Source of the DNA: Escherichia coli
GTDB taxonomy: Bacteria > Pseudomonadota > Gammaproteobacteria > Enterobacterales > Enterobacteriaceae
DNA length: 64,000 nucleotides
Assembly (NCBI RefSeq): GCF_044324785.1
Contig: NZ_CP172127.1
Direction: 5' to 3' (one strand)
A program made the position numbers and the translations under genes. Numbering within the stretch: the stretch's first letter is position 1; each line of letters starts with the position of its first letter. The notes under the pieces were generated by a model. That model was not told where the DNA came from and ran no database searches. It was given only the letters and a program-made list of their open reading frames with translations. Below are positions 1,849 through 58,575 of the stretch, in pieces.

Positions 1849-2320
1849 TGGAGCACCTCAAAAACACCATCATACACTAAATCAGTAAGTTGGCAGCATC
1901 ACCCGTTCATTTTCTGAGCCTGTAAAACATGTGGTGATATAGTCTGAGAGCATAAAAGTTGAGATTCTGTGTATCAAGTCCTGTCTTGGCACCGAATGAA
2001 TATTGCTTACGAAGCCCCTTCATGCTTTCCTTGAGAACAATAATTTTATCTTTATGTGAATCTCATTTTTTATAATGATGTCAGATGATTGAAATGCTAA
2101 ATTATATCTGAATCAACTTTTCCTTTGCTAAAGGTATAGAAATAACTGCAAGGCTGTATTTTGTAATTGCCAATTTAAAAATGTCAATTTGTTTTTAATT
2201 ATGTTTTTGTAATAAGTTTGAAGACACAAAAAATAATATAATAACAAAAATCCTCCAGCCTTGTAGGCCAGAGGATAAAATACTTAATTGAGGAAAACAT
2301 CAGGGAAAAGTATTTCTGAC

Positions 2321-3505: not shown

Positions 3506-3569
3506 ATGGGGGCTCCTGAAACTGACTGAACACAATGAGCCCCCACCGGGGCCCCCAATGAACGCTTGA

Positions 3570-14008: not shown

Positions 14009-14836
14009 TCTATGGCGCTACTGGCACCATAGTACAAAAAATGAGCGATGGTGCCACTGACACCACGGTATAAAAAATGAGCGATGGTGACGCTGGCACC
14101 ATAGTACAAAAAATAAGCGATGGTGCCACTGGCACCATAGTACAAAAAATGAGCGATGGTGCCACTGGCACCACGGTATAAAAAATGAGCGATGGTGCCA
14201 CTGGCACCACGGTACAAAAAATAAGCGATGGTGCCACTGGCACCACGGTATAAAAAATGAGCGATGGTGCCACTGGCACCACGGTACAAAAAATAAGCGA
14301 TGGTGCCACTGGCACCACGGTACAAAAAATAAGCGATGGTGCCACTGGCACCACGGTACAAAAAACGAACGATGGTGCCACTGGCACCATAGTACAAAAA
14401 ATAAGCGATGGTGCCACTGGCACCACGGTACAAAAAATAAGCGATGGTGCCACTGGCACCACGGTACAAAAAACGAACGATGGTGCCACTGGCACCATAG
14501 TACAAAAAATAAGCGATGGTGCCACTGGCACCATAGTACAAAAAATAAGCGATGGTGCCACTGGCACCACGGTACAAAAAATAAGCGATGGTGCCACTGG
14601 CACCATAGTACAAAAAATGAGCGATGGTGCCACTGGCACCACGGTATAAAAAATGAGCGATGGTGCCACTGGCACCACGGTACAAAAAATAAGCGATGGT
14701 GCCACTGGCACCATAGTACAAAAAATGAGCGATGGTGCCACTGGCACCACGGTATAAAAAATGAGCGATGGTGACGCTGGCACCATAGTACAAAAAATAA
14801 GCGATGGTGCCACTGGCACCATAGTATAAAAACGAA
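14009..14836. repeat. Tandem array of ~22-23 copies of a 36-bp unit, each containing a 17-19-bp palindrome (A)TGGTGCCACTGGCACCA(T) plus an A-rich spacer
   Basis: Directly visible periodicity of 36 bp across ~830 bp with minor unit variants (cggtac/tagtac, ataa/atga/acgaa, gtgacgctg). Confidence 0.95.
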
Positions 14837-17940: not shown

Positions 17941-18270
17941 TGGCAGGGCTAACTTGTCGCTCCGGCGACCACCAATGTTCCATAGTGGCCTGTGAGGAAC
18001 GCCTTCGGGTGGCCCATGTCGCTTCAGCGACCACCAATGTTCCATGTGGCCTGTGAGGAACGCCTTCGGGTGGCCCACGTCGCTCCGGCGACCACCAATG
18101 CTTCATCTGACCTGTGAGGAGCGCCTTCGGGTGGTCAGTTTTACACCTCCTGAGCCTGAAAGGAGCTGTGCGTACTGAAGGGATATATTCCCGGAAGTAC
18201 GGGCAAATCTGCACACCTTTGAGAGCAGATGTCACTGCGGTTTTCCGTGATGATGAAGGCTTTTTTTACT
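17941..18270 (+). repeat. Structured ~320-bp element, copy 1 of 3 (three ~61-bp tandem units plus hairpin-rich tail)
   Basis: Unit gtcgctccggcgaccaccaatgttccatgtggcctgtgaggaacgccttcgggtggcccac x3, then tail with CTCCT/AGGAG, GTACT/AGTAC, ATCTGC/GCAGAT stems; near-identical at 46163 and 48465. Confidence 0.85.
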
Positions 18271-43915: not shown

Positions 43916-44179
43916 ATGAAACCGAATATCCATCCTGAATACCGTACTGTGGTGTTCCACGATACCAGTATCGATGAGTACTATAAAATTGGTTCGACCA
44001 TCAAGACTGAACGTGTGATTGAGCTTGATGGTGTCACCTATCCGTACGTAACAATTGATGTTTCCTCTAAGTCGCATCCTTTCTACACTGGCAAACTGAG
44101 AACTGTTGCTTCAGAAGGTAACGTGGCGCGCTTTAACCAGCGTTTCGGTCGTTTTGTTGACACCAAAAAAGGCGCATGA
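43916..44179 (+). CDS. ykgM: 50S ribosomal protein L31 type B (zinc-independent paralog)
   Basis: [31 protein letters not shown]... matches RpmE2/YkgM by recall, lacks the CxxC zinc ribbon; SD GGGGAGAAAA. Confidence 0.8.
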
Positions 44180-45342: not shown

Positions 45343-45996
45343 TCACTTTTCTTTTGTGTCAGTGGGTACTGCATTGTTTATTAGCCACGGCAATTGTTGA
45401 TTACCCTGTATTTTTCGGATGTAGTTATCAATAATATCTTTTGTTTCATCACTATTATTATAAAAAGATTCAAGTGTGCATATAAAATCATCATTTAATG
45501 CAGGTAGCAGGATTATGTTTTTTACTGTGAACCGGATATGACGATTACTCAGTGTTTTTAAATAAAGTTTCTTTCCAATAACAGGATTTACATTGAAAAT
45601 ATTGTAACAGATTTCCACTGTGTTTTCTGAAGGTGCGTATAATACGTATACCGGATATTTTTTATGAAGTTTTATCAGGCAATTTATAAAGTCTAAGGAA
45701 TTTGTTTGTTTTGCTTTTTCTCGCATCTTATTTACGTGTTGCGAAAAGAAATATGCTTTTGTAAATATAAAAAGAAAAATAAGCGCAGTGTTTAACAGAA
45801 ATGTGATGGCAATTGTTATAAATAACCATTTACCTGAACCTGTATTAAAGATATGGGATGAAAGATACCCACCTGTCAGCAACAAAAATATAAATAATAA
45901 TGACTGCATTTTTTCCTGGTTGTTTATTGATGATTTCAGACACAGAAATATAACAACACATGCAAAGCTCCAGAAAAATATAACAGCAAAATCCAT
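45343..45996 (-). CDS. Hypothetical membrane protein (3 N-terminal TM helices plus soluble C-domain; low GC)
   Basis: SD AAAGGTGA before ATG 45996; strongly AT-rich relative to ICE backbone. Confidence 0.55.
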   Translation of the reverse strand: MDFAVIFFWSFACVVIFLCLKSSINNQEKMQSLLFIFLLLTGGYLSSHIFNTGSGKWLFITIAITFLLNTALIFLFIFTKAYFFSQHVNKMREKAKQTNSLDFINCLIKLHKKYPVYVLYAPSENTVEICYNIFNVNPVIGKKLYLKTLSNRHIRFTVKNIILLPALNDDFICTLESFYNNSDETKDIIDNYIRKIQGNQQLPWLINNAVPTDTKEK

Positions 45997-46162
45997 ATTA
46001 TCACCTTTTGTCTGACAGTTCATTTGTTGATGCTATCACGATATTCGCGATGCGGTAAATATATCAATATGTTGGTTTATTTGTGTAATACATTATTTCC
46101 CATATGCCATAAATCAGTCTGTTGACGATAGCTTTTTTCTTTTGTTATTCTGTTCCCGCATT

Positions 46163-46478
46163 AACTGTCGCTTCGGCGACCACCAATGTTCCATGAGGCC
46201 TGTGAGGAACGCCTTCGGGTGGCCCATGTCGCTCCGGCGACCACCAATGTTCCATGTGGCCTGTGAGGAACGCCTTCGGGTGGCCCACGTCGCTCCGGCG
46301 ACCACCAATGCTCCATCTGACCAGTGAGGAGCGCCTTCGGGTGGTCAGTTTTACACCTCCGTAGCCTGAAAGGAGCTGTGCGTGCTGATGGGATATGTTT
46401 CCGGAAGTACGGGTAAATCTGCACACCTTTGCGAGCAGATGTCACCACGGTTTACGTGATGATGAAGGCATTCCGGAT
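46163..46478 (+). repeat. Structured ~320-bp element, copy 2 of 3
   Basis: Same three-unit plus hairpin-tail organisation as 17941-18270, with a few substitutions. Confidence 0.85.
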
Positions 46479-47175
46479 TTCGTCCGGTACTTTTACTTTT
46501 TCTCAGCAGACTTTCATAAAAAATGCTTTATGGATCTGCGTCTTAACATATTTTCTGACTTTCCGCATAAGCTTCTTATGACTGTGCGCACGGCATAAGG
46601 CCATTTGAAATTTGGCCGCTTGCGTGTGTACGTGGAGTTTGAAGCAGTGCATGCGTCACTTTTGTCGGCGTTCACGCTGACAAAGTGACGCATGAACGTC
46701 GACTCAACGAACCCGCATAAACAGGCTCTTCACGGGATGTTTTTTAACATTTGAAGAAGTGACCTGACGTGATCGTTTTTTTTCAACTTCATTCTGTTTC
46801 GTAGTGACGTCTCTCCGGTAAAACTTCCGGAAAAACGTCAGTCAACAGAATATCATTGTTTTTTAAGGAGTTTAATGTAGTGAGATGCCGAATCGGCGAT
46901 ATATCTGACAGGCAGATATGTCGGGGGCGACCTTCAGAGGTACAGTTAATTCTGCGGCCGGTTAAACTAACCGGCTTGACACCCCGCAAAACCTGAACAC
47001 TTTGCGTTACCCTGACGCACAGGCACTCACTCACCGAAGGAACGTAACGAAGAACCGTGTCGTCAGGTGAAATGCAGATGAATTCTTCTGTTGTGTTCAC
47101 GGCACAACAGAAGAATTCATCTGTGTTGTGTGCTGCTGTTTTGTTTAGGTCATAGGTCATAAGGAGAATGTACAG

Positions 47176-48081
47176 ATGTCCAGACGTGAGAAATTGCTTA
47201 AAAAGGATCTGGTTGCTCATGTCCGAAAAGAAAAGGGGAGTTTTAAAAAGTTAAGTGACTATACAAGGATTATGCATCGATTCGCTGAAACGCTTGCTCG
47301 TCTGAATGTACAGATTAGTTCTGCTGCACAGTTAAAAGTTCGTCACATTGAATTATATATGAACAGCAGGACGGATGTATCAAAACGAACGAGAGAAAAT
47401 GAAATGTCAGCAATACGCGCGGTTTTACGTCAGGTTGGTAAGAATAAACTTGCCGATCCCAGCCATCCACGGCTGAGTAATAAAGCATTAGGTATTTCAG
47501 GTGAGAGTCGTAAAGGTACGAAAAGTCTGATTACAGACGATCGTTTTCGTGAAATTCTTCAGCGCATTGAACAAAAAGATAAAGGACTCGCTGCAACGGT
47601 TAAATTGTCGCGTTATCTTGGTCTGAGAAATGAGGAGGCCATTCAGTCCGCCAAATCGCTCAAAACATGGAAACAGGCATTAGAACGGGGAGATGAAAAA
47701 TTACGTGTTATTTTTGGTACGAAAGGCGGTCGTGAGAGAATGACCACGATTGTTGACAGAAATAATGTTATTGAGGCTGTTAATTATGCTATTAAATATG
47801 CCGGTGAGCATGACGGGCGATTAATCGACAGAGGTAATCTTAAGTCTGCAATGAATTATTATCTTAACTCATTGCGTCGTTATGGTGAAATGAAAGGCGG
47901 TGATGAGACACCACATAGTTTTCGTTACAGTTATGCCGCAAGTGCAATGAAATACCATATTATGAATGGTTACAGTTATCATGAAGCGCTTGCATTAACA
48001 TCTATGGATCTTGGTCACGGTGACGGCAGAGGACGTTATATCGAGCAGGTATATTGCCAGTTGTTAGGACATGAAGAATAG
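47176..48081 (+). CDS. Tyrosine-recombinase/integrase-like protein
   Basis: SD TAAGGAGAA before ATG; candidate catalytic residues R (LGLRNEEA), HxxR (HSFRYSYA), Y (GRGRYIEQVY); family by pattern only. Confidence 0.55.
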   Translation: MSRREKLLKKDLVAHVRKEKGSFKKLSDYTRIMHRFAETLARLNVQISSAAQLKVRHIELYMNSRTDVSKRTRENEMSAIRAVLRQVGKNKLADPSHPRLSNKALGISGESRKGTKSLITDDRFREILQRIEQKDKGLAATVKLSRYLGLRNEEAIQSAKSLKTWKQALERGDEKLRVIFGTKGGRERMTTIVDRNNVIEAVNYAIKYAGEHDGRLIDRGNLKSAMNYYLNSLRRYGEMKGGDETPHSFRYSYAASAMKYHIMNGYSYHEALALTSMDLGHGDGRGRYIEQVYCQLLGHEE

Positions 48082-48121
48082 CTGTTATTATATTGTAGCC
48101 ATTTTCTTAAAAGGGACCGTT

Positions 48122-48415
48122 ATGAGTGATTATATTTATATGACTATTACTTCTGTTAAAAGTATCACTGACAACTCTCCTTTCTGGTCTTATGATTTAG
48201 GTTATTATCTTTATTCAGGAAAACTTGTGTCTTTTTATTGTGAGGGCATGTCCAACGAATGGGATATGTGTTCTGCTATCGCGGATCATTTTGACGTTGT
48301 CGGAGATTTTTCTTTTGATGTTATTCGTAAGAAAAAAAGAACGCTGATACGTGGGAACTGCGTTTTTCTTTTTGAACAACCCTTTCCGGGAGCGTATAAA
48401 ATACCGCTTTACTGA
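48122..48415 (+). CDS. Hypothetical protein (AT-rich)
   Basis: SD AAAGGGA before ATG 48122. Confidence 0.4.
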   Translation: MSDYIYMTITSVKSITDNSPFWSYDLGYYLYSGKLVSFYCEGMSNEWDMCSAIADHFDVVGDFSFDVIRKKKRTLIRGNCVFLFEQPFPGAYKIPLY

Positions 48416-48464
48416 ATTTTTTTGTTGTTCTTCCACGTAGTTTGTGCTTACAATTTAAACGCTA

Positions 48465-48775
48465 ACTTGTCGCTTCGGCGACCACCAATGTTCCATGTGG
48501 CCTGTGAGGAACGCCTTCGGGTGGCCCATGTCGCTCCGGCGACCACCAATGTTCCATGTGGCCTGTGAGGAACGCCTTCGGGTGGCCCACGTCGCTCCGG
48601 CGACCACCAATGCTTCATCTGACCTGTGAGGAGCGCCTTCGGGTGGTCAGTTTTACACCTCCTGAGCCTGAAAGGAGCTGTGCGTACTGAAGGGATATGT
48701 TTCCGGAAGTACGGGCAAATCTGCACACCTTTGAGAGCAGATGTCACTGCGGTTTTCCGTGATGATGAAGGCTTT
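48465..48775 (+). repeat. Structured ~320-bp element, copy 3 of 3
   Basis: Near-identical to copy 1. Confidence 0.85.
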
Positions 48776-48901
48776 TTTATCACTGTATGACCTGAGTTAT
48801 CTCTGGTCCTTAAGCACATCGTGTTATCGCATTGATGTGTTCACCTGACGGATTTTCCAGTCCGTCAGGGCGGAACGTCCGTCTTTTATCCGGAGGTTCC
48901 A

Positions 48902-49303
48902 ATGTTTATTCCACTTCTGTTTCGCGCAGAGATGCGCCTGACACCTTTCTTTCAGCGACTCAGACAACGTCTGTGTTATCCGGTGAGTCGTGTTCATACA
49001 CAACATCCCTGGTCTTCTCCACAGTTGCGGCACCTTTACTGCACGCCGTGGTTTGTTAACGCCACCGGCAATCTTGCACTCCGTGCCTGCATTGTTTCCA
49101 TTGACGGTTCTTTGCGACACTGCTTTGAGTTCCGTGAAGGCTCTCACAGCCGTGAATACCGTTTCTGGTTTGAGGCGCTTCCTTTGTCGGTACTGCGTTT
49201 TAACACTTTTACCGGTCGAATATCCGATCGCCGTACACTCTCTGCTGCCTCCCGTATGGCCGCGCAGCTTACTTCCTTTCGCTATCGCTTCGGTTTGCGC
49301 TGA
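48902..49303 (+). CDS. Hypothetical basic protein
   Basis: SD GGAGG 5 nt before ATG 48902; preceded by 9-bp-stem hairpin. Confidence 0.45.
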   Translation: MFIPLLFRAEMRLTPFFQRLRQRLCYPVSRVHTQHPWSSPQLRHLYCTPWFVNATGNLALRACIVSIDGSLRHCFEFREGSHSREYRFWFEALPLSVLRFNTFTGRISDRRTLSAASRMAAQLTSFRYRFGLR

Positions 49304-49455
49304 AGCTGTTTGAGGTCGTTATGACAGTCATTTTCTCTACGAGCAGCGTTGTCTGATCGCGCCATTCAGAACGCGATGACAAAGCTGATTTTTCCTTAAC
49401 CCGTCCGGGACCGCTTCCGTTCGGGGAACGGTCTCTCTGTTTCTGGAGATTGTTT

Positions 49456-49842
49456 ATGGGACTCGATATTTTTTTCCTTGGGCGTGATCGTGTTTGTGTT
49501 ACCGACGCAGTGGTATCGGTACCGGAAACGCGGGAAGTGGGGTACTTTCGCAAGGTTAACCCACTGATTGCCTGGTTTGAGAAGCATTGTGGACCGCTTG
49601 AAAATGCCGTGGAGCGTCCGGTTTCCAGAACGGAACTGGAGGCACTACTGAGCGATCTTGAATGCCTTACGCCGGAGAACTGCCGGGAATTCTTCCCCAC
49701 AACAGAAGGATTCTTTTTTGGCTCTCAGGAGTATGACCAGTATTACTGGAAGGATGTTGAGGACGTGAAGTCGTGGGTCAGAAGCACGCTTGATTCGTTT
49801 GATTTTGAACGAAAAATACTGTTGCTCTGGGCATGGTGGTAA
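49456..49842 (+). CDS. Hypothetical protein
   Basis: SD GGAGA before ATG 49456 (track ORF begins at upstream TTG). Confidence 0.5.
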   Translation: MGLDIFFLGRDRVCVTDAVVSVPETREVGYFRKVNPLIAWFEKHCGPLENAVERPVSRTELEALLSDLECLTPENCREFFPTTEGFFFGSQEYDQYYWKDVEDVKSWVRSTLDSFDFERKILLLWAWW

Positions 49843-49928
49843 CTATTTCTCAGTCCTTGTTTTTAACCATGTGATTATTCGCAGAAGCCCGACTTCTCTG
49901 GCCTGCTTTTATTCCGGAGAATGAGATT

Positions 49929-50177
49929 ATGCAAATAAGTGCAGAAACTCGCGCTGTTTTACGTCACTACAGACAGATCATTAACGCCAGACGGCGTGAA
50001 GATGGCATGAAAGCTCTCAGCACGCCGCAAATCGTTGATGAGATCTGTGAGTTTATGCTCAGCCAGCCAGCAGTGTATCTGGGGGGGGCAGTTCATCATG
50101 CAGAAGGCCAGAACAAGATAGCTGTCTTTGTTCATGGCTTTTCAACAGACCGTTATGCTTTCGCCACCACATGGTAA
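49929..50177 (+). CDS. Hypothetical small protein
   Basis: 82-aa ORF in same-strand block. Confidence 0.45.
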   Translation: MQISAETRAVLRHYRQIINARRREDGMKALSTPQIVDEICEFMLSQPAVYLGGAVHHAEGQNKIAVFVHGFSTDRYAFATTW

Positions 50178-50261
50178 GGCGGGTCTGATTTTACTGTTAA
50201 CCGTACGGTTCACTCTCATACCGTACGGTGGGAGTGAACCCTTTTCATTAAGGACACTCTC

Positions 50262-50771
50262 ATGAAAACGAAAACTTCTGCACCTGCTGTATATGTTGGT
50301 ACCTGGGCTAAATACAACAATGGCAGCATAGAAGGATGCTGGTTTAATGATTTAACCGTTTTTGAAACTGAAAGCGATTTTTTATCTGCGGCCCGTAAGT
50401 TTCATCAGGATGAAAAAGATCCTGAATTTATGTACCAGGATTATGAAAACTTTCCTTCGGGAATGGCTTCAGAATATGGTTTCAACTGGGCTTATGTTGA
50501 AGGTTATCGTCTTGCCCGTGAAGAAGGCTGTGAAGATGCATGGTATGCATGGGTTTCTAATACCGGTGATACCTGTTTCGAACAGTTCAGGGAGGCGTGG
50601 CTTGGTGGTCCTTATGACAGTGAACTCGAGTTCGCCGCGCAGTACGTGGATGAATGCGGTTTTCTGTCAGAGGTACCTGATACTGTTGCACGCTATTTTG
50701 ATTATGAGGCTTTTGCGCGCGATTTGTTCATGGAACTGGATTTTGTCGACGGACACGTTTTCCATCGGTAA
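50262..50771 (+). CDS. ardA: Antirestriction protein ArdA
   Basis: PAVYVGTWAKYNNGSIEGCWF...HQDEKDPEFMYQDYENFP and acidic composition match ArdA by recall. Confidence 0.8.
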   Translation: MKTKTSAPAVYVGTWAKYNNGSIEGCWFNDLTVFETESDFLSAARKFHQDEKDPEFMYQDYENFPSGMASEYGFNWAYVEGYRLAREEGCEDAWYAWVSNTGDTCFEQFREAWLGGPYDSELEFAAQYVDECGFLSEVPDTVARYFDYEAFARDLFMELDFVDGHVFHR

Positions 50772-50967
50772 CTCACAGCCATGAGGGCGCATATAAGCCG
50801 TGTACTGGCGGATGTGATTTCAGCATACATTCTGCTGGTTTTTTTACCGTTGTTGACAATTTTAATCATCGCGGATGAACAACCTGAACTCTGTTGTTCA
50901 CCGCCCGGAGGCATCGTTCCTTCGGACGGTGTGCTCTTTCATCAGAAAGAATCAGACAGGGGGTTTT

Positions 50968-51327
50968 ATGTATTCGCGTTTTATTACTGGTTACTGGCAT
51001 CTTCAGACGCAGTCCGCTTTGCTGGCACATCTCTGTCAGCTTGAAGGTGAACTGACGATACTTCGCGCCTGGCAACGTCTCGGAATTACCCCGGTGCCGG
51101 AGGATGAAGATGAGCCTTCACCACTTTACTCAATTTTGTGGGATGTTGGTGAGGCTCTGGGCTGGTTGCTGTATGACCTGGAGATGGAAAATGTTCCTGC
51201 ACCGGGAACGATTTTCCACGAGGTATTCGACAGGGTTATATCTCTGGGGTATGAGACTGAGCCCGGTATCTGGGCTGAAAGTATCAGTACCGGAAAGCGC
51301 TACGCTGCAATGCCTGACGAATTTTAA
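50968..51327 (+). CDS. Hypothetical protein
   Basis: SD GGGGG before ATG 50968. Confidence 0.45.
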   Translation: MYSRFITGYWHLQTQSALLAHLCQLEGELTILRAWQRLGITPVPEDEDEPSPLYSILWDVGEALGWLLYDLEMENVPAPGTIFHEVFDRVISLGYETEPGIWAESISTGKRYAAMPDEF

Positions 51328-51394
51328 TGTTTTCCACATTCCCACAGGGACTCATCCCTGTGGGACGGGTCCCGGCTTTTTCAGGAGAAATTTC

Positions 51395-51733
51395 ATGAGA
51401 CCCGATTTGAATACTTTACCCGGAGATTCCGGCTGCAGCGTCTGGTTCTATGACGGAATGTCTCAACCGCGTCTGCTGGCGGGCAGTATTGCCGGGTTAC
51501 TGACGGATGTTACGATCACATCGAATTACCGTGGTGACGTCACATCTGAAATTCATGACGTGGTGCAGGAGTGGCTTGCGACCGGCAGGGGTAACCTGGC
51601 GGATTTAAAGGAAGAACTCTGGTACTACAACCTCTACATAAATCCGTCGGCAGACGAACTTATGAATGCCAACAGGCGGTATGGCCTCGGACATACCACC
51701 AGGCTGAAAGGCTTTATCAATAACGCGGCGTGA
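51395..51733 (+). CDS. Hypothetical protein
   Basis: SD AGGAGAAA before ATG 51395; preceded by hairpin. Confidence 0.5.
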   Translation: MRPDLNTLPGDSGCSVWFYDGMSQPRLLAGSIAGLLTDVTITSNYRGDVTSEIHDVVQEWLATGRGNLADLKEELWYYNLYINPSADELMNANRRYGLGHTTRLKGFINNAA

Positions 51734-51808
51734 CACACCGCCATCCCGTGAGGGCTCAGCTCCTCACGGGGCTGTTCCCTCGGTGATTTTCATACAGAGA
51801 GGAGCAGA

Positions 51809-52246
51809 ATGATGAACGTTAAGTCTGTGACTGAGGTTGACGACGCTGTGGTTGCCCGTGTCAGTGAAGTTCTGGAATTCGCATTTCCGGGGCAGAAATT
51901 TGAAGTGCTGAAGGTATGCGATTCCGGCGTTTACAACATGATTAATGTGTACTGGCTGGACGGCCCGACACAGGCTGAAGTGCGGTTTATCACCCGTGCG
52001 TTTGAAGGCAAAAACGGGCTGAGGTTTGTGCACGAATCCCGCGAATTCAGTAATGAATTTGTGCAGGAGTGCATTGACCGGCTTCGCCAGAAGTACGGGC
52101 ATCGCAACGTTCCGCCAGAGGTGACCGTGGAGCGTTACTGGAAAAACGATCTGTGGAAGATTAAAACAGATCGTTTCCCGGGCACTATTGAGGTTGCCAT
52201 CAACGAAATGGGGATGGAAACCAGTAAATACCGGAAGGTTGTATAA
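51809..52246 (+). CDS. Hypothetical protein
   Basis: 145-aa ORF, SD GAGAGGAG upstream. Confidence 0.5.
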   Translation: MMNVKSVTEVDDAVVARVSEVLEFAFPGQKFEVLKVCDSGVYNMINVYWLDGPTQAEVRFITRAFEGKNGLRFVHESREFSNEFVQECIDRLRQKYGHRNVPPEVTVERYWKNDLWKIKTDRFPGTIEVAINEMGMETSKYRKVV

Positions 52247-52353
52247 CCGGCTGGACTTTTGACGATGGCGGAATGTGACAATTCCGCTTTTCCCGTGAGG
52301 GCATTGTTCCTCACGGGACAATGCCCTCTTCATTTACCAGAGGAGCATTGATT

Positions 52354-53331
52354 ATGGCTGAATGGTGCAGAAATCGTTTTGAAATCACCGGTAAGTCAGT
52401 CTGTCTTGACGTACTGATTCAGTGGATTGAAGGGAATGATGCCCCCCGGTACCGTCATGCGATCCAGCAGAGCATACTGCTGTTTCTTGCAGGCTGTGCG
52501 GGGATACTGAAACCGGTAAGAACGGTGTCATATCCGCCTTATCCCGGGCTGGTCAGTCACGGTGCCGGCTCAACAACTGTAGCCAGTCAGGCGTTTGAAC
52601 AATGGCTGGGATTACTGACCAGGGATGCCTTCCTTGATCACGAGACGGTGAAGACAATAGATCGTCTTTATCATCAGACAGGGACAGGCGCTATCCGGTG
52701 GAGTAATCTGCCTGATACGGCGAAGGAGATAATCGGTGGTGTGCTTGCACAACAATATGCTGACTGGTTTGGCGTGGCGGATGTGTATGAACGCCCTGAT
52801 AACGCCTTTCTCTGGGAGTCGTTGTTAACATTTGCGGAGTATTCGCAACCCTGTGATATGCTGCAGGTGATGCCAACACGACTGGCCACGGAGCTGAACG
52901 GAAGTGGTGGTTTGCTGAAAGGCACCGGAACGACCCGCAGTTTTTACTGCCGCCAGTTTGGTATGGAGTACCCACTGGGGCAGAATGTCCGGTGGAAACG
53001 AACCGGGCTGAGTACGTTGATACTGGAGTTTGATACCATCTGGTGTCCGCCTTCAGGTGTACTGGTGGGGGAGATTTCGGCAGTGTTTGACTGTGAGGTC
53101 CGTCACTGGTACAGCGAGCCGAAGAACGGAATCAGAGGCTATGACTGTTATGATGGTGGTGAACATACGGACAGCAATATGGAAGCCGAATGGCCACACT
53201 CTGACGATGAGGGGGAGGTCGCGGAGCATGAGCAGCCACAACTCTGTCTGATCAGGGACACGCAGCCAGGTGAACGCGTCATGGCATTAGCATCAGTCGA
53301 GTCCCCGGGGCCAGTAGTAAAAATAGTGTAA
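52354..53331 (+). CDS. Hypothetical protein
   Basis: SD GGAG before ATG 52354 (MAEWCRNRFEITG...). Confidence 0.55.
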   Translation: MAEWCRNRFEITGKSVCLDVLIQWIEGNDAPRYRHAIQQSILLFLAGCAGILKPVRTVSYPPYPGLVSHGAGSTTVASQAFEQWLGLLTRDAFLDHETVKTIDRLYHQTGTGAIRWSNLPDTAKEIIGGVLAQQYADWFGVADVYERPDNAFLWESLLTFAEYSQPCDMLQVMPTRLATELNGSGGLLKGTGTTRSFYCRQFGMEYPLGQNVRWKRTGLSTLILEFDTIWCPPSGVLVGEISAVFDCEVRHWYSEPKNGIRGYDCYDGGEHTDSNMEAEWPHSDDEGEVAEHEQPQLCLIRDTQPGERVMALASVESPGPVVKIV

Positions 53332-53340
53332 TGAAACAAT

Positions 53341-53365
53341 GCGCCACATTTTGTGGCGCTTTTTT
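53341..53365. terminator. Terminator hairpin between convergent genes
   Basis: GCGCCACA-tttt-GTGGCGC followed by TTTTTT. Confidence 0.6.
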
Positions 53366-53412
53366 AATAAATCAGTGATGGCAGAGTTGTTATTGTAAAT
53401 AACTCTCCGTGT

Positions 53413-56328
53413 TTACTGAGTCAGTTTTTTTATCAGGTCGTGAATTTTATCACCTGAAAACTGGGTCATGAAAGTTATCTTTATGGATTTACTGATTTGT
53501 TCGAAGAGTTTCTGTGCATGTTTTATTTTATCGCGTTCTTCATGTCTGAGTTCACGTTTGCCATCAACATTTTTGGTTTCAATAATAAGGTTCAGATAAT
53601 CACCCTTTGACGTGTTTACAACATAAGCGAAGTCAGGGGAGTAAGTGTATCCTCCCGCTACAGGAATTTTTATTGAATTTTTGGGGATCTTTGTGAAGAC
53701 AATGACTGACCTGACCTCACCCTCTGTCATATTGAGTTTTTCAAGTTCTGAATCATAAAATACTTCTTCAAAAAGATAAGAGTCCAGTGGAGGGCTTGTA
53801 TTATCCTGTAAAACGCCAAGATCACTTGACAATACATCAGCAAGATAACCGCCGTCTGCATTGGTGAATTTCGTGGGATGGACAGTTCCTGATATTACAT
53901 TATACCCAAGGCTGAATTTACTGAACGAGTTATTAAGCAAATACTTGCTGAAACCAGATTTAATTTTTCTGATTGTCTGAATGTTAAGGTATTCAGTTAT
54001 ATTTATGATGTCTTTTATATCACAAAAAACCTTATGCATGGTGTCATGTTTGACAAAAATAGTCTGTGATAATTTATCAAGGAATTCACGATAGCTCATT
54101 GTGTTTATTTTGTGAAAATTATCCTCATCAACACTGAGAATGCTTTTCGACATTGCCGTATCATTATGGATATAAATTCTTTCAATACGAGTATGAGCAC
54201 CGGATTTGGTAAATCTGTCTGCTTCTTCCAGCATAAACGCTCTGAAAAGGGATAAAAACTCACGTTCACTTTTTATTTTATACTCAATCACGACCTTTTG
54301 ATTGATCAAGTCCCATAGTTCTTTCAGCTCACTGAACTTACCAACACGCATTTTAGTGCGTCTTTTTCCATCAGAGGCTTTTTTTATTTTGCCTGGTTTC
54401 ACTCCTGCAGGAAATGCTGCCGGATATCTGGCTTTTAAGCGGCTATAGGCATCTGAATCTTTGAAGTTATCATTATCATCAATGATCTCATCACCAAAAA
54501 TTTCATTCAAGAGTGTTCTGGAGGAAAGCTCCGGATATTGAGACAGGATTTTATCCTTAAGCTCCTGAGTAAACTTACCTGGAACAGTCTCTTTGAAAGA
54601 ACTATCGTTGATCTCTTTGACAAGAGAATCGACAAAATCTTTTTCTGTAAAATCAACATAATAGTTGAGGGTAAAATTGCGGTCTTTCACACGACACATG
54701 TATTCATTCACCGGAAGACGTAAACCACGCCCTACTTCCTGAAGTTTAGATGTGGTGCTACCGCTCGAACGGAGCTTACAAATCTGAAAGACATTTGGGT
54801 TATCCCATCCCTCACGCAACGTCCATTTAGAGAAAATGAAACGGCGAGGATTTTCTAAAGACAATAGAAGCTCTTTATCATGAAGGATTTCGTTGATTTC
54901 CTGCTCAATTTTATCATCTTTATCACTATTATCTTTTGAAAAATAACCACCATGAACAGAAGATATATCCTTAACAGTTTTTTCAAGGTAGTTTCTGTAA
55001 AACTCATCTTTTTCTGTTTTTAACAGTTCATTTGCTTCTGCCAAAACGTATTCTTCGAACTTAGTTTTCAGGCTTCCTGCAATATCATTACCATCACGAT
55101 AGCCTTCAATGTCATCAATGAAGAAAAGAGTAAGAGGTTTTATGCGTGGCCTTTGTGTCAGATACTCTTTTTCTAACTTAAAGTGTTCTTTGACAGCTTT
55201 ACGTATCATGTTATCAGCAAGTGTCTGATCGTAAGAATAGGGGTTTATCGAACTACCAATTTTTAGCTCAATACCATTACTCAACACTGCTGTATTCTTA
55301 TTTAAAGCATCAAGAGTTAAATCATGGATCGCACTATGCGTCTTAGATAGTGATTCACCTTTGGCTAACTTAAAAATTTTTTTATTATTATTTTCGTTCA
55401 GTTCAAATGTAGCTTCTTTTCCGTCAGATTTGACCAACTTGAGGTTGGCATTACCATCACCAACTATATCCTCAATGTATGCATCAATACCTTTAACAAG
55501 ATCTTCATTGAAGGCATCTACGGCTGTAAGACGATAAACTAAGTTCTTATAGCCTTCACTAAAGGTTGCACCATAGCGGATGATATATTGGGCATTAAAT
55601 TTTTGAATATGTTCCCATGTCTTTTTACCAGTAGGAAATTTATGAGGCTCATCAATGATAATGAATGGTTTTATCGCACTAAGTGCAGAAAATGGGGTAT
55701 CAAACTGATTATTAAGCAAGCCAACATCATAAGTGTCAGTTAAAGACTTAGAGTTAATCATCCCTGAATTGATCACAAGAATGTGTATATATTTCTTATT
55801 GAAATTACTTGCTTCAACAAAATCATGGATAGCTTGAGGTATATACGATTTTGTATTTTTACCCGAACGTTTCTGACTTTCAACAACGTAAGTCTTTAGT
55901 TCACGCTCGTAATCATCTCGAAAGTGTTCTTTTATAGCATCGCTTTTTAAAAAGTTAACGGTTCCGGCTTTGATCGATAGGGTAGGAACAATGATGATAA
56001 ACTTGTTAATACCAAATGATTTGTTCAGGTCAAAAATTGTTTTGGTGTAAGTATAAGTTTTACCTGTACCTGTCTCCATAGAAACATCAATTACGTTGCT
56101 TTTAGCATCGTAATTATCTTTTGAGTGCTCAATACCATTGAACTCCTGAACATTTTTTATGTTGTTGTAGTATTGTTGTTCAGATAGATTCAGTTCTGGA
56201 TTAGCTAACAGGCGAATTGCAACATGATCCGTCTGATGAGGTATGGCGGATACAAAGACATTCATTACCGAATCAACGCCAGCCTTTTGATGAGGTAAAT
56301 TTTTTTCGAATGTGAACCCTTTAGACAT
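53413..56328 (-). CDS. res: Type III restriction enzyme Res subunit
   Basis: 971 aa; helicase Walker A METGTGKTYT, DEAH-like IIIDEPH, motif VI QEVGRGLRL, C-terminal PD-(D/E)xK; low GC; immediately downstream of mod. Confidence 0.85.
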   Translation of the reverse strand: MSKGFTFEKNLPHQKAGVDSVMNVFVSAIPHQTDHVAIRLLANPELNLSEQQYYNNIKNVQEFNGIEHSKDNYDAKSNVIDVSMETGTGKTYTYTKTIFDLNKSFGINKFIIIVPTLSIKAGTVNFLKSDAIKEHFRDDYERELKTYVVESQKRSGKNTKSYIPQAIHDFVEASNFNKKYIHILVINSGMINSKSLTDTYDVGLLNNQFDTPFSALSAIKPFIIIDEPHKFPTGKKTWEHIQKFNAQYIIRYGATFSEGYKNLVYRLTAVDAFNEDLVKGIDAYIEDIVGDGNANLKLVKSDGKEATFELNENNNKKIFKLAKGESLSKTHSAIHDLTLDALNKNTAVLSNGIELKIGSSINPYSYDQTLADNMIRKAVKEHFKLEKEYLTQRPRIKPLTLFFIDDIEGYRDGNDIAGSLKTKFEEYVLAEANELLKTEKDEFYRNYLEKTVKDISSVHGGYFSKDNSDKDDKIEQEINEILHDKELLLSLENPRRFIFSKWTLREGWDNPNVFQICKLRSSGSTTSKLQEVGRGLRLPVNEYMCRVKDRNFTLNYYVDFTEKDFVDSLVKEINDSSFKETVPGKFTQELKDKILSQYPELSSRTLLNEIFGDEIIDDNDNFKDSDAYSRLKARYPAAFPAGVKPGKIKKASDGKRRTKMRVGKFSELKELWDLINQKVVIEYKIKSEREFLSLFRAFMLEEADRFTKSGAHTRIERIYIHNDTAMSKSILSVDEDNFHKINTMSYREFLDKLSQTIFVKHDTMHKVFCDIKDIINITEYLNIQTIRKIKSGFSKYLLNNSFSKFSLGYNVISGTVHPTKFTNADGGYLADVLSSDLGVLQDNTSPPLDSYLFEEVFYDSELEKLNMTEGEVRSVIVFTKIPKNSIKIPVAGGYTYSPDFAYVVNTSKGDYLNLIIETKNVDGKRELRHEERDKIKHAQKLFEQISKSIKITFMTQFSGDKIHDLIKKLTQ

Positions 56329-56330
56329 GA

Positions 56331-58367
56331 TTAGTTCCTTACCACCAAATCTAAATCAATAGATTTTTTATTAGCATAACTTTTTAGTGCTTCATTGAGT
56401 TCCATCTGTTTCGCACTTTCGAAGTTGCTGCCATAAAATACAACTTTGTTAGGGGCAAAGTCTTTGTCTGCATCCAGCTTTTGAAGTAAAGCTTTCAAAG
56501 CCTCACTTGTGAAATTAGGCGCAATTAGATATAGCCGACCATCGCACAAGTGTGCTTTGTAGCCATTAAGGTCAATATCTTCAATTGGTGTTGTTAGCAA
56601 GCTGCCATCATACACGCACCATGTCGTCAATAGAGTGTCATACTGCTCTGGTGTCAATACAGCATCGTCAAAGAAACTAAGATTAGAAAGCGTAAGTTCA
56701 GACTCATCTTTCACTCGAAAATCATGAACTGTTTCAAATATTTTAAATCCCAAATCTCCATTATAATTAGGATTATCTTTTTTCAGCTTTTTTCCTGCCT
56801 TAATAATTCTGTCTTTTGTTATATTGAAGATGGATTTATACCCTTCTTTATAGGCTTGTTTCTTTTTATCTGTTTCTTCATCTAATTGAACACAGATGAA
56901 GTTTCTTTTCCTGCCGTCTTCAATATTTAACTCCAGAATACCATGAGCTGTAGTTCCAGAGCCAGCAAAAAAGTCAAGATAAATGTCTTTATCTTCGGTT
57001 TTTACTGAACCAAATAGTGTTTTTATTAAACTTGTTGGCTTCGGGTAGGAGAAATATCCTTTCCCACCAAAAAGATTTTCAACCTCAACACCACCATCAC
57101 TTTTAGTTGAAATAATTGATCTTAGTAAAAACTCTTCAACTTCATCTAAAAATTTAACCGAACTGGGTTGGGTGTTTTCTGTACTGGCAAACCAAATTCC
57201 ACCACAAATAACGCTACCATCATGTAGTTTTTTGATATCTGCATACTTTCCATCTATTCTTTTTGCAATATGATTAAAAGTGCCTTCTTTCCAACGCCAG
57301 CCTCTGTCTGGGATTTTGACAGGGTTATTAGTCAAAGGGTGCAATACTTCATACGTGGGTCCAAATGAATCTGCATTAGGCCAGCTCATATTAATTTTAC
57401 CCCATGGCCTATAATCTTCGTTCAAACAGTTGTAAAGAGTAATTCCACGATCATATCCGTTGGAGCTGTAGAATTTTTTGAGTTGCTGCTCTGCTTTATC
57501 TAATGGCACCTTCTCCTTTTTTAACTTTTCAATAAACTGATATACATCATCAATACCATCTTTCCGCATTAAAAATTCTTTACTTATTTCGTTATTCTTC
57601 GCATAAGCAAGGATGTACTCATGGATATTACCAATACCCTTATCATTTTTAGGGATACGTTTATTCCATACAATATTTTCTATGAAATTTGCTTCGCCAA
57701 AAATTTCATCACAAATAGTTTTAAGTTGATTTAATTCATTTTCGTCAATCGAAATAAATATCACACCATCTTCACGTAGAAGCTCACGAGCAATATATAA
57801 ACGAGGATAAATGAACGTTAACCATGCGCTATGGCTGCTTGAACCATTCGTGGTAAATTCAAGTATACGTTTAGCCTCATCAAGATCGATACCTGCCAGA
57901 TCAGAAAGCTGTTCAGGTGTAAACTTGCGATCATCGTTATAGGCGAATCCATCCTTACCTGTATTGTATGGTGGATCAATGTAAATCATCTTCACCTTTT
58001 CAGAGTAAGCATTAACCATATGCTTCAATACTTCGAGGTTATCCCCTTTGATTAACAGATTCTGACTGTTTTTGTTCTCTTCACGTTGGTTATGGTCTTT
58101 ATCTTCGGAGAGTAATGTCTTCGGCGGCAAGTTAGCTAACAGACGGGCATAGGATTTACCAAGCCAGTTCAGGCTGTATGATTCTTTGGAGAGTTCAACA
58201 TCCGATGATTTGACGATTTCAAGCAATTTTTCCTGAATGAACGCTCCATTTTTATCAAAACACTGTGGAAAGTTAGCCTTTAAAATCGCAAGCTGTTTAC
58301 TGTTTGTGGTTTCAGTTTCAGAGAAAAGAGTTTCTTTTTTCAGTTGAAATTGGGGTTGTGTATTCAT
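56331..58367 (-). CDS. mod: Type III N6-adenine DNA methyltransferase Mod subunit
   Basis: Motif IV DPPY (MIYIDPPYNTG) preceding motif I FFAGSGTT (beta-class order); SD GGAGGTG 5 nt before ATG 58367; mod-res order. Confidence 0.85.
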   Translation of the reverse strand: MNTQPQFQLKKETLFSETETTNSKQLAILKANFPQCFDKNGAFIQEKLLEIVKSSDVELSKESYSLNWLGKSYARLLANLPPKTLLSEDKDHNQREENKNSQNLLIKGDNLEVLKHMVNAYSEKVKMIYIDPPYNTGKDGFAYNDDRKFTPEQLSDLAGIDLDEAKRILEFTTNGSSSHSAWLTFIYPRLYIARELLREDGVIFISIDENELNQLKTICDEIFGEANFIENIVWNKRIPKNDKGIGNIHEYILAYAKNNEISKEFLMRKDGIDDVYQFIEKLKKEKVPLDKAEQQLKKFYSSNGYDRGITLYNCLNEDYRPWGKINMSWPNADSFGPTYEVLHPLTNNPVKIPDRGWRWKEGTFNHIAKRIDGKYADIKKLHDGSVICGGIWFASTENTQPSSVKFLDEVEEFLLRSIISTKSDGGVEVENLFGGKGYFSYPKPTSLIKTLFGSVKTEDKDIYLDFFAGSGTTAHGILELNIEDGRKRNFICVQLDEETDKKKQAYKEGYKSIFNITKDRIIKAGKKLKKDNPNYNGDLGFKIFETVHDFRVKDESELTLSNLSFFDDAVLTPEQYDTLLTTWCVYDGSLLTTPIEDIDLNGYKAHLCDGRLYLIAPNFTSEALKALLQKLDADKDFAPNKVVFYGSNFESAKQMELNEALKSYANKKSIDLDLVVRN

Positions 58368-58425
58368 AACGCACCTCCAGAATGCACGGAGGTACTTGAC
58401 GCGGAATTTTTATACAGGCATATTG

Positions 58426-58575
58426 TTGCGTTGCGTTGCGTTGCGTTGCGTTGCGTTGCGTTGCGTTGCGTTGCGTTGCGTTGCGTTGCGTTGCGTTGCG
58501 TTGCGTTGCGTTGCGTTGCGTTGCGTTGCGTTGCGTTGCGTTGCGTTGCGTTGCGTTGCGTTGCGTTGCGTTGCG
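58426..58575. repeat. Perfect pentanucleotide repeat (TTGCG)x30; (CGCAA)x30 on the mod-sense strand
   Basis: 150 bp of uninterrupted 5-nt periodicity, 58 bp upstream of mod ATG, preceded on the sense strand by ATG-AAA with SD GAGG. Confidence 0.95.

Follow-up and report, generated by a model that had tools for sequence, protein, structure and literature searches.

An ardA-containing gene block headed by a STAXI RNA motif in an SPI-7/PAPI-1-type ICE of Escherichia coli: a likely accessory anti-restriction and establishment operon

The window (the whole stretch of 64,000 nucleotides analyzed here) is 100% identical to the sequence of E. coli APEC E19035 (NZ_CP126926.1) and forms part of an SPI-7/PAPI-1-type ICE of ~78 kb located at tRNA-Phe. 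According to the annotation, the assignment to this ICE type is based on the MPF_G ICE core genes, the SPI-7-type dnaB, traI, and int genes, and the tRNA-Phe site. The window contains three copies of the STAXI motif, the third of which heads a block of eight genes including ardA:

17955–18261, + strand: STAXI copy 1 (Rfam), between topB and the STY4534-family gene/ssb/rpn
46122–46151, + strand: promoter of STAXI copy 2, TTGACG-18-TATTCT (promoter scan)
46166–46461, + strand: STAXI copy 2 (Rfam)
46878–47031, + strand: EFASI-like RNA motif (RF02957), located after STAXI copy 2 and before the recombinase gene
47176–48081, + strand: integrase-domain (tyrosine-recombinase-like) gene (PGAP name), conserved partner of STAXI–EFASI
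48425–48454, + strand: sigma-70-type promoter of STAXI copy 3, -35 TTGTTC (48425–48430), 18-nt spacer, -10 TACAAT (48449–48454)
48468–48773, + strand: STAXI copy 3 (Rfam RF01728), three 61-nt pseudoknot units in tandem, followed by a 3' extension that ends in GAAGGC-TTTTTT
48826–48880, + strand: candidate hairpins in the leader, downstream of STAXI and upstream of the first gene (sequence, fold, terminator scan)
48902–49303, + strand: g1, basic 133-aa protein, pI 11.4, conserved first gene after STAXI
49456–49842, + strand: g2, acidic 128-aa protein of a large uncharacterized family
49929–50177, + strand: g3, small ORF, 82 aa here, with a G8 tract at 50081–50088
50262–50771, + strand: ardA, ArdA-family anti-restriction protein (Pfam, PDB, PHROGs, PGAP product name)
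50968–51327, + strand: g5, acidic 119-aa protein, pI 4.3, narrow family, phrog_22073 at 1.5e-4
51395–51733, + strand: g6, 112-aa protein, phrog_10958 at 7e-11, phrog_32750 at 2e-8
51809–52246, + strand: LPD29-domain protein (PGAP name), 145 aa, Pfam PF18847 at 2.2e-7 (residues 14–69)
52354–53331, + strand: DUF1281/Api92-like protein, 325 aa, conserved last gene of the block
53341–53359, both strands: bidirectional intrinsic terminator

The eight same-strand genes described in the first-pass annotation agree exactly in their starts with the + strand CDS of the NCBI annotation (48902, 49456, 49929, 50262, 50968, 51395, 51809, and 52354), and the block is closed by the terminator at 53341–53359 (GCGCCACATTTTGTGGCGC), which has a T-run on each strand and also ends the convergent res gene. 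All eight genes are preceded by a Shine-Dalgarno-like sequence and are spaced by 67–196 nt. Each intergenic gap contains a hairpin, and the terminator scan detected 28 terminator-like sites vs. 8.2 expected, which counts against co-transcription of the block.

The first gene, g1, encodes an odd-looking protein rich in R, F, and C. Nevertheless, g1 is a real gene: protein-level conservation of its core extends to Erwinia, Serratia, Citrobacter, and Edwardsiella, in each case immediately behind a STAXI copy. The family of g2 is characterized by invariant motifs, namely N-terminal MGLD, GYFRK, and GFFFGS. The ORF at 49929 (g3), listed among the genes of the first-pass annotation, is present, but PGAP marks it as a frameshifted pseudogene, and strain 5CRE51 has a G7 instead of the G8 tract and a product of 63 aa; g3 may be inactive.

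ArdA proteins are DNA mimics that inhibit Type I R-M enzymes. The recognition of such a protein at 50262–50771 was borne out by Pfam PF07275 (2.7e-26, positions 1–147 of 155), phrog_2059 (3e-26), and PDB 2W82 (phmmer, 1.8e-8), as well as by a net charge of -21 and a pI of 4.2. Like ArdA of Tn916 (Orf18, PDB 2W82) and of IncI/IncN plasmids, it is a strongly acidic protein with the full Pfam ArdA domain encoded on a conjugative element, but with a phmmer E-value of just 1.8e-8 it is divergent from the Tn916 protein. The other seven genes had been described as lacking any assignable motif. This applies to g5 and g6, for which the Pfam search gave no match. According to family clustering, g5 also occurs in the Serratia and Citrobacter blocks. 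Of the loci compared, only the two E. coli blocks contain g6, which has just 10 close homologs. The description does not hold for the last two genes. The product of 51809 carries LPD29, a proposed anti-defense domain whose definition comes from polyvalent proteins encoded by phages and conjugative elements; it also occurs in aca4 operons. The product of 52354 contains DUF1281 (9.7e-66) and DUF1281_C (9.6e-14) and is a close homolog, with the same two domains, of the solved protein Api92 from the YAPI island of Yersinia pseudotuberculosis (PDB 2IJR, 2.1e-106), which belongs to the family of YubB of the F plasmid. Although a structure has been solved, our searches found no assigned function for the Api92/YubB (DUF1281) family; it ranks as family 27 of the top 100 plasmid leading-region families (Samuel et al., 2024). 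For g1 and g2, fold searches yielded only weak, generic matches. Homologs in PHROGs, and thus in phages, exist for six of the eight block products.

Eight blocks from seven genera (Escherichia and six further genera) were compared. Related ICEs share the common frame STAXI–EFASI–recombinase–STAXI–g1…DUF1281, within which the middle genes are swapped: g1 is present in six blocks and DUF1281 in seven, ArdA was found in two, and ArdC plus a methyltransferase in five. The relatives carry ArdC (verified against PDB 6I89 at 7e-55) and an orphan N6-methyltransferase in the place of ArdA. By these associations, the block is a mosaic accessory module between the conserved end genes g1 and DUF1281. Homologs of g2 lie immediately upstream of ArdC in Providencia, Photorhabdus, and E. 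coli, and in phages they are found near Tad3. In Serratia the g2 family is two genes away from ArdC, the same distance that separates g2 from ArdA in this ICE. In a Salmonella island of the CP4-57/CP4-44 type, a g2 homolog (46% identity) is located directly upstream of a PF03230 ArdB/KlcA-type anti-restriction gene. Such islands of E. coli and Salmonella (YfjX/ArdB-like anti-restriction, RadC, CbtA/CbeA) share g2 with the block described here, but are a different mobile element with another anti-restriction family, an attached toxin–antitoxin module, and no STAXI match.

The structured element whose third copy had been noted in front of the block is real and corresponds to STAXI (RF01728): copy 3 scores 68.6 bits at 48468–48589 and 66.3 bits at 48590–48773 (E about 1e-12), compared to a gathering score of 40.5. 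The three copies are about 300 nt long with pairwise identities of 88–99%, copies 3 and 1 being 99% identical. Tandem pseudoknot units, UUCG loops, and occurrence in Enterobacterales are as described for STAXI (Weinberg et al., 2010) and EFASI (RF02957), and the published linkage of STAXI to ssb, topoisomerase, anti-restriction, and integrase genes is reproduced here with no difference in kind. The EFASI-like motif behind copy 2 scores 46.3 bits, which is under the gathering score of 51.2; at the equivalent position, at least 20 related loci have an above-threshold EFASI. Homologs of the recombinase (43–57% identical) follow STAXI–EFASI in 17 loci, and PF12834/PF12835 are present in homologs of this protein. 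Our analysis adds to the known motif the recurrent gene order given above, a conserved upstream promoter, and wobble evidence for the folding strand. The promoter pattern TTGNNN-N16–18-TANNNT was found upstream of 21 of the 28 unique STAXI instances, its -10 box ending 12–14 nt 5' of the motif, and at random positions in the STAXI loci in 0.8% of cases; the -35 box of copy 3 is degenerate and weaker than the usual TTGACN. The pseudoknot helix comprises 204 Watson–Crick, 14 G.T, and no A.C pairs; 41 of 44 units show a G.T pair in their inner stem; and the total is 71 G.T vs. at most 6 A.C, these 6 deriving from mis-indexed bulged units. Covariation and G.T wobbles thus assign the fold to the + (sense) strand. 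RNA of STAXI has, moreover, been detected in E. coli vesicles by RT-qPCR (PMC12370729).

Taken together, the conserved sigma-70 promoter and the sense-strand wobbles indicate that STAXI is a transcribed RNA leader and not a Frpo-like single-strand-DNA promoter, a reading that had been implicit in the first-pass annotation. In that case STAXI would correspond, in MPF_G ICEs, to Frpo/ssi and act as a hairpin promoter or priming site in the transferred single strand, and the ardA block would be expressed from single-stranded DNA as soon as it enters. The layout resembles that of F and ColIb, with three copies of one element before ssb, the recombinase, and ardA, both STAXI strands fold better than shuffled sequence (z -3.7 and -4.2), and a single-strand-DNA role has been raised before (Weinberg et al., 2010). 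Moreover, in simpler relatives the block runs directly up to traI and is oriented toward it, as leading-region genes are toward oriT. Nevertheless, we consider this explanation very improbable. A Frpo-type promoter needs the template strand, whereas it is the sense strand of STAXI that folds; the stems measure just 3–6 bp, an inverted-repeat partner that would render the -35/-10 region double-stranded was looked for without success, and an ordinary duplex promoter is conserved just upstream. STAXI–EFASI also occurs on small ColE1-type plasmids, where the contig examined has no ORF on the same strand downstream of it. This likewise argues against a single-strand promoter, but would suit STAXI as a stand-alone small RNA gene that has both a promoter and a terminator of its own, the block being transcribed from other, unrecognized promoters. 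Rfam indeed classifies STAXI as sRNA. Downstream of the last stem, copies 1 and 3 have TTTTTT and many loci have a T-rich stretch, so that STAXI could be a separate sRNA, which counts against the leader reading. These T-runs, however, are short and often interrupted, a same-strand gene begins about 60–130 nt 3' of STAXI in every ICE locus, and no promoter-like site was found by the promoter scan of 48774–48901. An independent sRNA gene thus seems unlikely to us.

On the preferred reading of STAXI as a leader, transcription would start from the promoter at 48425–48454 and proceed through a structured leader of roughly 430 nt, consisting of STAXI copy 3 and further hairpins, into the eight co-oriented genes, to end at 53341–53359. 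The distal part of this leader (48826–48880) includes the terminator-like GGGCGGAACGTCC followed by GTCTTTTATC, immediately 5' of the ribosome-binding site. A cassette of this kind, promoter plus STAXI, also stands before the ssb operon and the recombinase gene, and since one such cassette precedes all three units, these are probably co-regulated at the RNA level; a regulatory role of STAXI and the timing of block expression are inferred, as is co-transcription. ArdA would block the Type I restriction enzymes of the new host, and the other products might serve as further entry and establishment factors of the ICE. In this model g1 and DUF1281/Api92 would form the fixed frame and g2, g3, ardA, g5, g6, and LPD29 the exchangeable cargo, which relatives would replace with ArdC, the orphan methyltransferase, and other small genes.

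We therefore regard the block, with some reservation, as probably an accessory operon for anti-restriction and establishment that belongs to an SPI-7/PAPI-1-type (MPF_G) ICE, a known kind of locus. The island proposed in the first-pass annotation is supported by association, namely by the ArdA/ArdC swap in a mosaic slot, by g2 beside anti-restriction genes, and by the LPD29 and leading-region DUF1281 families; none of the unassigned genes gained a function, PADLOC found nothing, and homology and fold searches gave no match of their products to characterized anti-defense proteins. Their anti-defense activity is putative, and the block could instead consist mainly of ICE housekeeping genes for regulation, replication, recombination, or partition, with ardA as a lone anti-restriction passenger. 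The positions of g1 and DUF1281 are conserved across genera, the strongly basic g1 product would suit nucleic-acid binding, and the other STAXI copies head ssb, the STY4534 "ICE replication protein" gene, and the recombinase. As parts of the fixed frame, g1 and DUF1281 may indeed serve the ICE core rather than an arms race. For the block as a whole we find this explanation rather doubtful, because the middle genes vary among ICEs with the same core and the slot of ardA holds ArdC and an orphan methyltransferase in relatives, because most products have phage homologs, and because g2 accompanies three unrelated families of anti-restriction genes in elements that are themselves unrelated. Homologs with housekeeping roles, named beforehand as counter-evidence, did not turn up for any block gene in the homology searches.

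The closest known systems are the leading-region anti-defense islands of conjugative plasmids such as F and ColIb-P9 (Samuel et al., 2024), which likewise combine a co-oriented ardA with many small uncharacterized genes and share the families ArdA and DUF1281/YubB and, with the relatives of this ICE, ArdC-like genes and orphan adenine methyltransferases. Further parallels are ssb and rpn behind another copy of the element and the use of one repeated structured element before several units. In contrast to these islands, the host here is an MPF_G ICE and not a plasmid, and the element is a STAXI RNA with a duplex sigma-70 promoter instead of the Frpo single-strand-DNA hairpin promoter. The block also lies ~24 kb from the relaxase gene traI, and the suggested location in a first-transferred region, next to oriT, is hypothetical in this ICE. 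The end of the block is adjoined by defense cargo, a Type III R-M system in this ICE and a type II CBASS in Erwinia.

The eight-gene block around ardA lies on an integrative conjugative element (ICE): window positions 48400–53400 are 100% identical to the chromosome of E. coli O2:K1:H5 APEC E19035 (NZ_CP126926.1), which according to its NCBI/PGAP annotation carries an ICE of the SPI-7/PAPI-1/ICEclc type (MPF_G) of ~78 kb. All markers of this class are annotated by PGAP, namely the TIGR037xx ICE membrane and transfer proteins, the SPI-7-type DnaB, ParA/ParB, TopB, a TraI_2-type relaxase, a tyrosine integrase, and a tRNA target site. In window orientation, PGAP places ParA, the SPI-7-type DnaB and ParB first, followed by the STY4528-family replication protein and topoisomerase III, the STY4534-family protein with Ssb and Rpn, PilL, TraD and a run of TIGR037xx "integrating conjugative element" proteins (58–62% GC), and TraG-N. 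Then come the region of interest, the Type III R-M system, TraF, a shufflon recombinase and a type IVb pilus operon, and finally a UvrD-like helicase, the TraI-domain relaxase, the integrase, and tRNA-Phe. Among 5,426 complete E. coli genomes, 35 contained the block at ≥80% coverage; no PLSDB plasmid did. Its features, and those related to it, are the following:

17955–18261, STAXI (RF01728) copy 1, between topB and the STY4534–ssb genes
46166–46461, STAXI copy 2, before a motif resembling the companion RNA EFASI (RF02957; 46.3 bits, just sub-threshold) and an integrase-domain (recombinase) gene
48425–48454, promoter of copy 3, TTGTTC-18-TACAAT, from the alignment of STAXI instances
48468–48773, STAXI copy 3, before the ardA block
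48902–49303, + strand, g1
49456–49842, + strand, g2
49929–50177, + strand, g3
50262–50771, + strand, ardA
50968–51327, + strand, g5
51395–51733, + strand, g6
51809–52246, + strand, LPD29 gene
52354–53331, + strand, DUF1281/Api92-like gene, last of the block
53341–53359, bidirectional terminator closing the block and facing the convergent res gene

That a structured element heads eight closely spaced same-strand genes, one of them encoding ArdA, had been proposed in the first-pass annotation and was borne out. Copy 3 corresponds to Rfam STAXI (68.6 + 66.3 bits vs. a gathering score of 40.5), the starts of all eight genes coincide with PGAP CDS on the + strand, each gene is preceded by a Shine-Dalgarno-like sequence, and the intergenic gaps measure 67–196 nt. 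ArdA matches PF07275 (i-E 2.7e-26, model positions 1–147 of 155) and the phrog_2059 "anti-restriction protein" (3e-26), and aligns over residues 9–163 with the solved ArdA structure PDB 2W82 (1.8e-8). Its composition (33 acidic vs. 12 basic residues, net charge −21, pI 4.2) would give an acidic surface consistent with DNA mimicry.

The same annotation had seen no motif in the other seven genes. With respect to Pfam this holds for g2, g5, and g6, but not for the last two genes of the block. The LPD29 gene matches PF18847 (i-E 2.2e-7) over model positions 6–57 of 93 only and bears the identical name in PGAP; LPD29 genes are found in aca4 (anti-CRISPR-associated) operons. The final gene combines PF06924 at its N-terminus (9.7e-66) with the C-terminal ferredoxin-like domain PF18406 (9.6e-14). 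Its product and Api92, a protein of the Yersinia YAPI island with a solved structure (PDB 2IJR, E 2.1e-106), both contain the full DUF1281 + DUF1281_C and are near-identical in family terms. NCBIfam and PADLOC scans of all eight block products gave no match; PHROGs matches were obtained for six of the eight.

As for the remaining small genes, g1 is a real protein despite its unprotein-like first look: its counterparts directly behind STAXI in Erwinia, Serratia, Citrobacter, and Edwardsiella have a core of ~85 residues in common (24–41% identity); a deep HMMER search with g1 yielded seven matches only. The protein is strongly basic, and g2, g5, and ArdA are acidic. No profile was obtained for g5 and g6, because word-index searches with them gave close E. 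coli relatives only, and structure-based attempts on g1 and g2 led to no function. In g3, flagged by PGAP as frameshifted in the window, a G8 tract at 50081–50088 results in 82 aa, and the related block of E. coli strain 5CRE51, with G7, codes for 63 aa; the cause could be slipped-strand variation or a difference in sequencing. The region 45900–53500 is also rich in G+C-rich hairpins (28 terminator-like sites vs. 8.2 expected), which are unrelated to one another in sequence; almost all gaps between the genes of the block contain one, such as 50207–50240 before ardA and 52297–52328 before the DUF1281 gene.

In related ICEs the recurrent frame reads STAXI–EFASI–integrase-domain gene–STAXI–g1–variable genes–DUF1281(–N6-methyltransferase)–cargo. 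The ORFs of eight such blocks from seven genera were clustered into families.

Occurrence of gene families in the eight blocks
g1: 6/8
DUF1281: 7/8 (eighth locus truncated)
ArdA: 2/8 (both E. coli)
ArdC (PDB 6I89 7e-55, phrog_7245 7e-78): 5/8
Orphan N6-adenine methylase: 5/8 (same five as ArdC)
g5: 4/8
g2: 3/8
g3, g6, LPD29: 2/8 (E. coli only)
~335-aa family: 3/8 (ArdC-type only)
~205-aa family: 4/8 (ArdC-type only)

The Serratia block is a hybrid of the ArdA- and ArdC-type layouts. Moreover, the 649-residue phage proteins of phrog_23459 unite ArdC-like, 88-aa, and methylase-like parts that are encoded by separate genes in the ICE blocks, a fusion that follows the polyvalent-protein pattern (Iyer et al., 2017).

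The family of g2 comprises 907 homologues without a Pfam domain. It is a candidate for an anti-defence function; in unrelated elements its members adjoin or lie within two genes of ArdA, ArdB-type, or ArdC genes, and they are also found in phages. The g2 gene directly precedes ArdC in one ICE each of Providencia and Photorhabdus and in a further ICE of E. coli, and in a CP4-type island of Salmonella it is located directly upstream of a PF03230 anti-restriction gene, which is followed by RadC and CbtA/CbeA. In phages, g2 occurs a few genes from Tad3. The gene is also found on ~110-kb plasmids of the PLSDB type non-mobilisable, which we take to be phage-plasmids.

The first-pass annotation had regarded the neighbours of ardA as candidates for further anti-defence functions. 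This candidacy is strengthened by association, through the exchange of ArdA and ArdC, g2, DUF1281, LPD29, and the PHROGs matches, but does not extend to a function for any single gene. Judged from sequence, the block carries the signature of an anti-restriction/establishment accessory module. It resembles the islands in the leading regions of plasmids, in which a known anti-defence gene is accompanied by enriched families in the same orientation (Samuel et al., 2024), since it contains ArdA and DUF1281 and all eight genes are on the + strand. In the list of the 100 largest leading-region families, DUF1281 (YubB/YccB/YfdA) is number 27, at a median distance of 22 ORFs from oriT and in T-strand orientation (Samuel et al., 2024).

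STAXI owes its name to the accompanying genes (Ssb, Topoisomerase, Antirestriction, XerDC Integrase; Weinberg et al., 2010), and all three window copies have ssb, topoisomerase, anti-restriction, or integrase genes as neighbours. Each copy scores 61–69 bits against the RF01728 gathering score of 40.5, and the three are 88–99% identical over ~300 nt. They are far more alike than copies from different ICEs, a hint of gene conversion or of selection for a single shared trans-acting partner. The pseudoknot unit, of 61 nt, is present three times in tandem and is supported by covariation. For comparison, 25 further STAXI loci from Enterobacterales genomes were scanned with Rfam. A sigma-70 promoter of the form TTGNNN (mostly TTGACN)-16–18 nt-TANNNT precedes 21 of the 28 unique STAXI instances, its −10 element ending 12–14 nt before the motif, a pattern shown by 0.8% of random positions in these loci; the other seven are for the most part near misses as judged by eye (e.g., TTGACA-17-GAAAAT). 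Copy 2 has TTGACG-18-TATTCT. The promoter of copy 3 escaped a generic promoter scan because its −35 element matches the consensus at 3/6 positions only.

Which strand folds can be read from the wobble pairs of 44 unique pseudoknot units. The pseudoknot helix contains 204 Watson-Crick, 14 G·T and no A·C pairs (plus two other pairs) and shows at least seven compensatory variants (e.g., TTCC/GGAA, CTCA/TGAG, CCAC/GTGG). In the inner stem there are 91 Watson-Crick pairs, 41 G·T pairs that represent one conserved pair in 41/44 units, and no A·C pair, and in the outer stem 225 Watson-Crick, 16 G·T, and six A·C pairs, all six from the window's bulged units, which are misplaced by the fixed indexing. 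Since the wobbles are G·T on the sense strand of the downstream genes, and A·C pairs are absent apart from these mis-indexed units, the sense strand is the one that folds. Single-strand folding energies did not discriminate between the strands (z −3.7, −4.2, and −3.7).

These features differ from those of Frpo/ssi elements, which form a long imperfect hairpin whose stem provides the −35 and −10 elements and which fold in the strand that is transferred and serves as template for the downstream genes, whereas the stems of STAXI have only 3–6 bp and its G·T wobbles lie on the sense strand only. None of the three STAXI copies contains an inverted-repeat partner for the promoter region that could form a double-stranded promoter of the Frpo type. 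The promoter, the sense-strand fold, and the lack of Frpo architecture together mark STAXI as a transcribed RNA rather than a Frpo-like single-strand-DNA promoter. This fits with its UUCG loops (Weinberg et al., 2010) and with the detection of STAXI RNA by RT-qPCR in E. coli vesicles (PMC12370729).

Such an RNA may be a cis-acting leader or a separate sRNA. In ICEs a same-strand gene always starts ~60–130 nt past STAXI, and no promoter was found between copy 3 and g1. However, STAXI ends in a stem followed by a T-run, and on the ColE1-type plasmid L024 no ORF of the same strand follows the STAXI–EFASI pair in the contig examined. Three other roles were considered and dismissed. A leader peptide from the conserved GATGAAGG was rejected as the reading frames differ between STAXI copies, and both a G4-type primase site, suggested by a conserved CTG and three hairpins, and a ColE1 primosome-assembly role on small plasmids are at odds with the conserved promoter and with position and strand on L024. 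STAXI followed by EFASI occurs on 5–7 kb ColE1-type plasmids with RNAI (loci L006, L013, and L024–L027) from Pantoea, Mixta, Chimaeribacter, and a "Pseudomonas sp." record, and further STAXI matches, at 79% identity, lie on two E. coli plasmids of 3.1 kb.

In F, traI enters the recipient last. The ICEclc literature searched did not give the oriT position for this ICE family. In the E19035 ICE, traI is located ~24 kb downstream of the DUF1281 gene on the same strand, separated from it by the R-M system, traF, the shufflon recombinase, and the pilus operon. In two simpler relatives, the STAXI loci of E. coli (L039, GCA_025405215.1) and Providencia rettgeri (L036, CP090005.1), the end of the STAXI-headed block is only one to three genes away from traI and the integrase gene, again on the same strand. 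Here, g2-ArdC-CbtA-like-DUF1281 lies directly upstream of the TraI_2 relaxase, relaxase and integrase genes are situated at the element end, and a GDSL-lipase-like gene follows the integrase-domain gene. If oriT is located just upstream of traI and traI is transferred last, the block would constitute the leading region and be read from the transferred strand. Given the duplex promoter of STAXI, the block may also simply be expressed after second-strand synthesis.

The locus belongs to a known kind, the anti-restriction/establishment island of conjugative elements, of which it is a new and well-framed case, and the association of STAXI with anti-restriction genes has been known since 2010 as part of the motif's name. 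New are the conserved promoter and sense-strand evidence for STAXI, the fixed frame from g1 to DUF1281 with its exchange of ArdA and ArdC, and the finding that the g2 family repeatedly pairs with anti-restriction genes of three unrelated families. Anti-defence islands have mostly been mapped on plasmids; the same logic applies here to a large family of chromosomal ICEs in Enterobacterales that includes SGI-4 of epidemic Salmonella. The easily recognised frame from STAXI via g1 to DUF1281 could serve to harvest candidate anti-defence genes, of which g2, g5, g6, LPD29, and DUF1281/Api92 are concrete examples. The long-standing question of the role of STAXI is sharpened as well, its own promoter and sense-strand fold pointing to the RNA level. 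It is conceivable, although we consider it rather unlikely, that STAXI is the shared leader or riboregulator, possibly with g1, of an "establishment regulon" of ssb/replication, recombinase, and anti-restriction genes, and that g2 is a new anti-defence protein. If true, the STAXI regulon of SPI-7-family ICEs would be the RNA-level counterpart of the plasmid Frpo system.

Directly past the block lies a cargo hotspot, occupied by a Type III R-M system in the window; R-M is absent from the same site in 5CRE51. SGI-4 of Salmonella has sil/pco metal-resistance genes there, and in Erwinia psidii (locus L005, 1008–5321) a complete type II CBASS with cyclase, E1-E2, JAB, and 2TM/SAVED effector directly follows the block's methyltransferase gene. 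Upstream of the Type III mod gene (56331–58574, − strand), an ATG followed by 30 copies of GCAAC (58425–58574) is present on the same strand, in a reading frame other than that of the annotated mod start (58367). From its sequence, mod looks like a phase-variable gene (phasevarion) that is in the OFF state or uses an internal start.

Elsewhere on the ICE, a tandem array at 14012–14832 (22.8 copies of the 36-nt unit ATGGTGCCACTGGCACCACGGTACAAAAAATAAGCG, 91% matches) is positioned between the STY4528-family "island replication protein" gene and the PFL_4669 gene. Every unit contains an inverted repeat, and a 266-aa PGAP ORF spans the array on the opposite strand; it could be an iteron or centromere-like array. 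The ICE further carries a gene for a type B (zinc-independent) ribosomal protein L31 (~43916–44179). At the left end, a second tyrosine recombinase gene (~2257–3519), divergent from parA, probably belongs to a neighbouring tandem-inserted island (AAA protein, eptA-like, tia, IS66).
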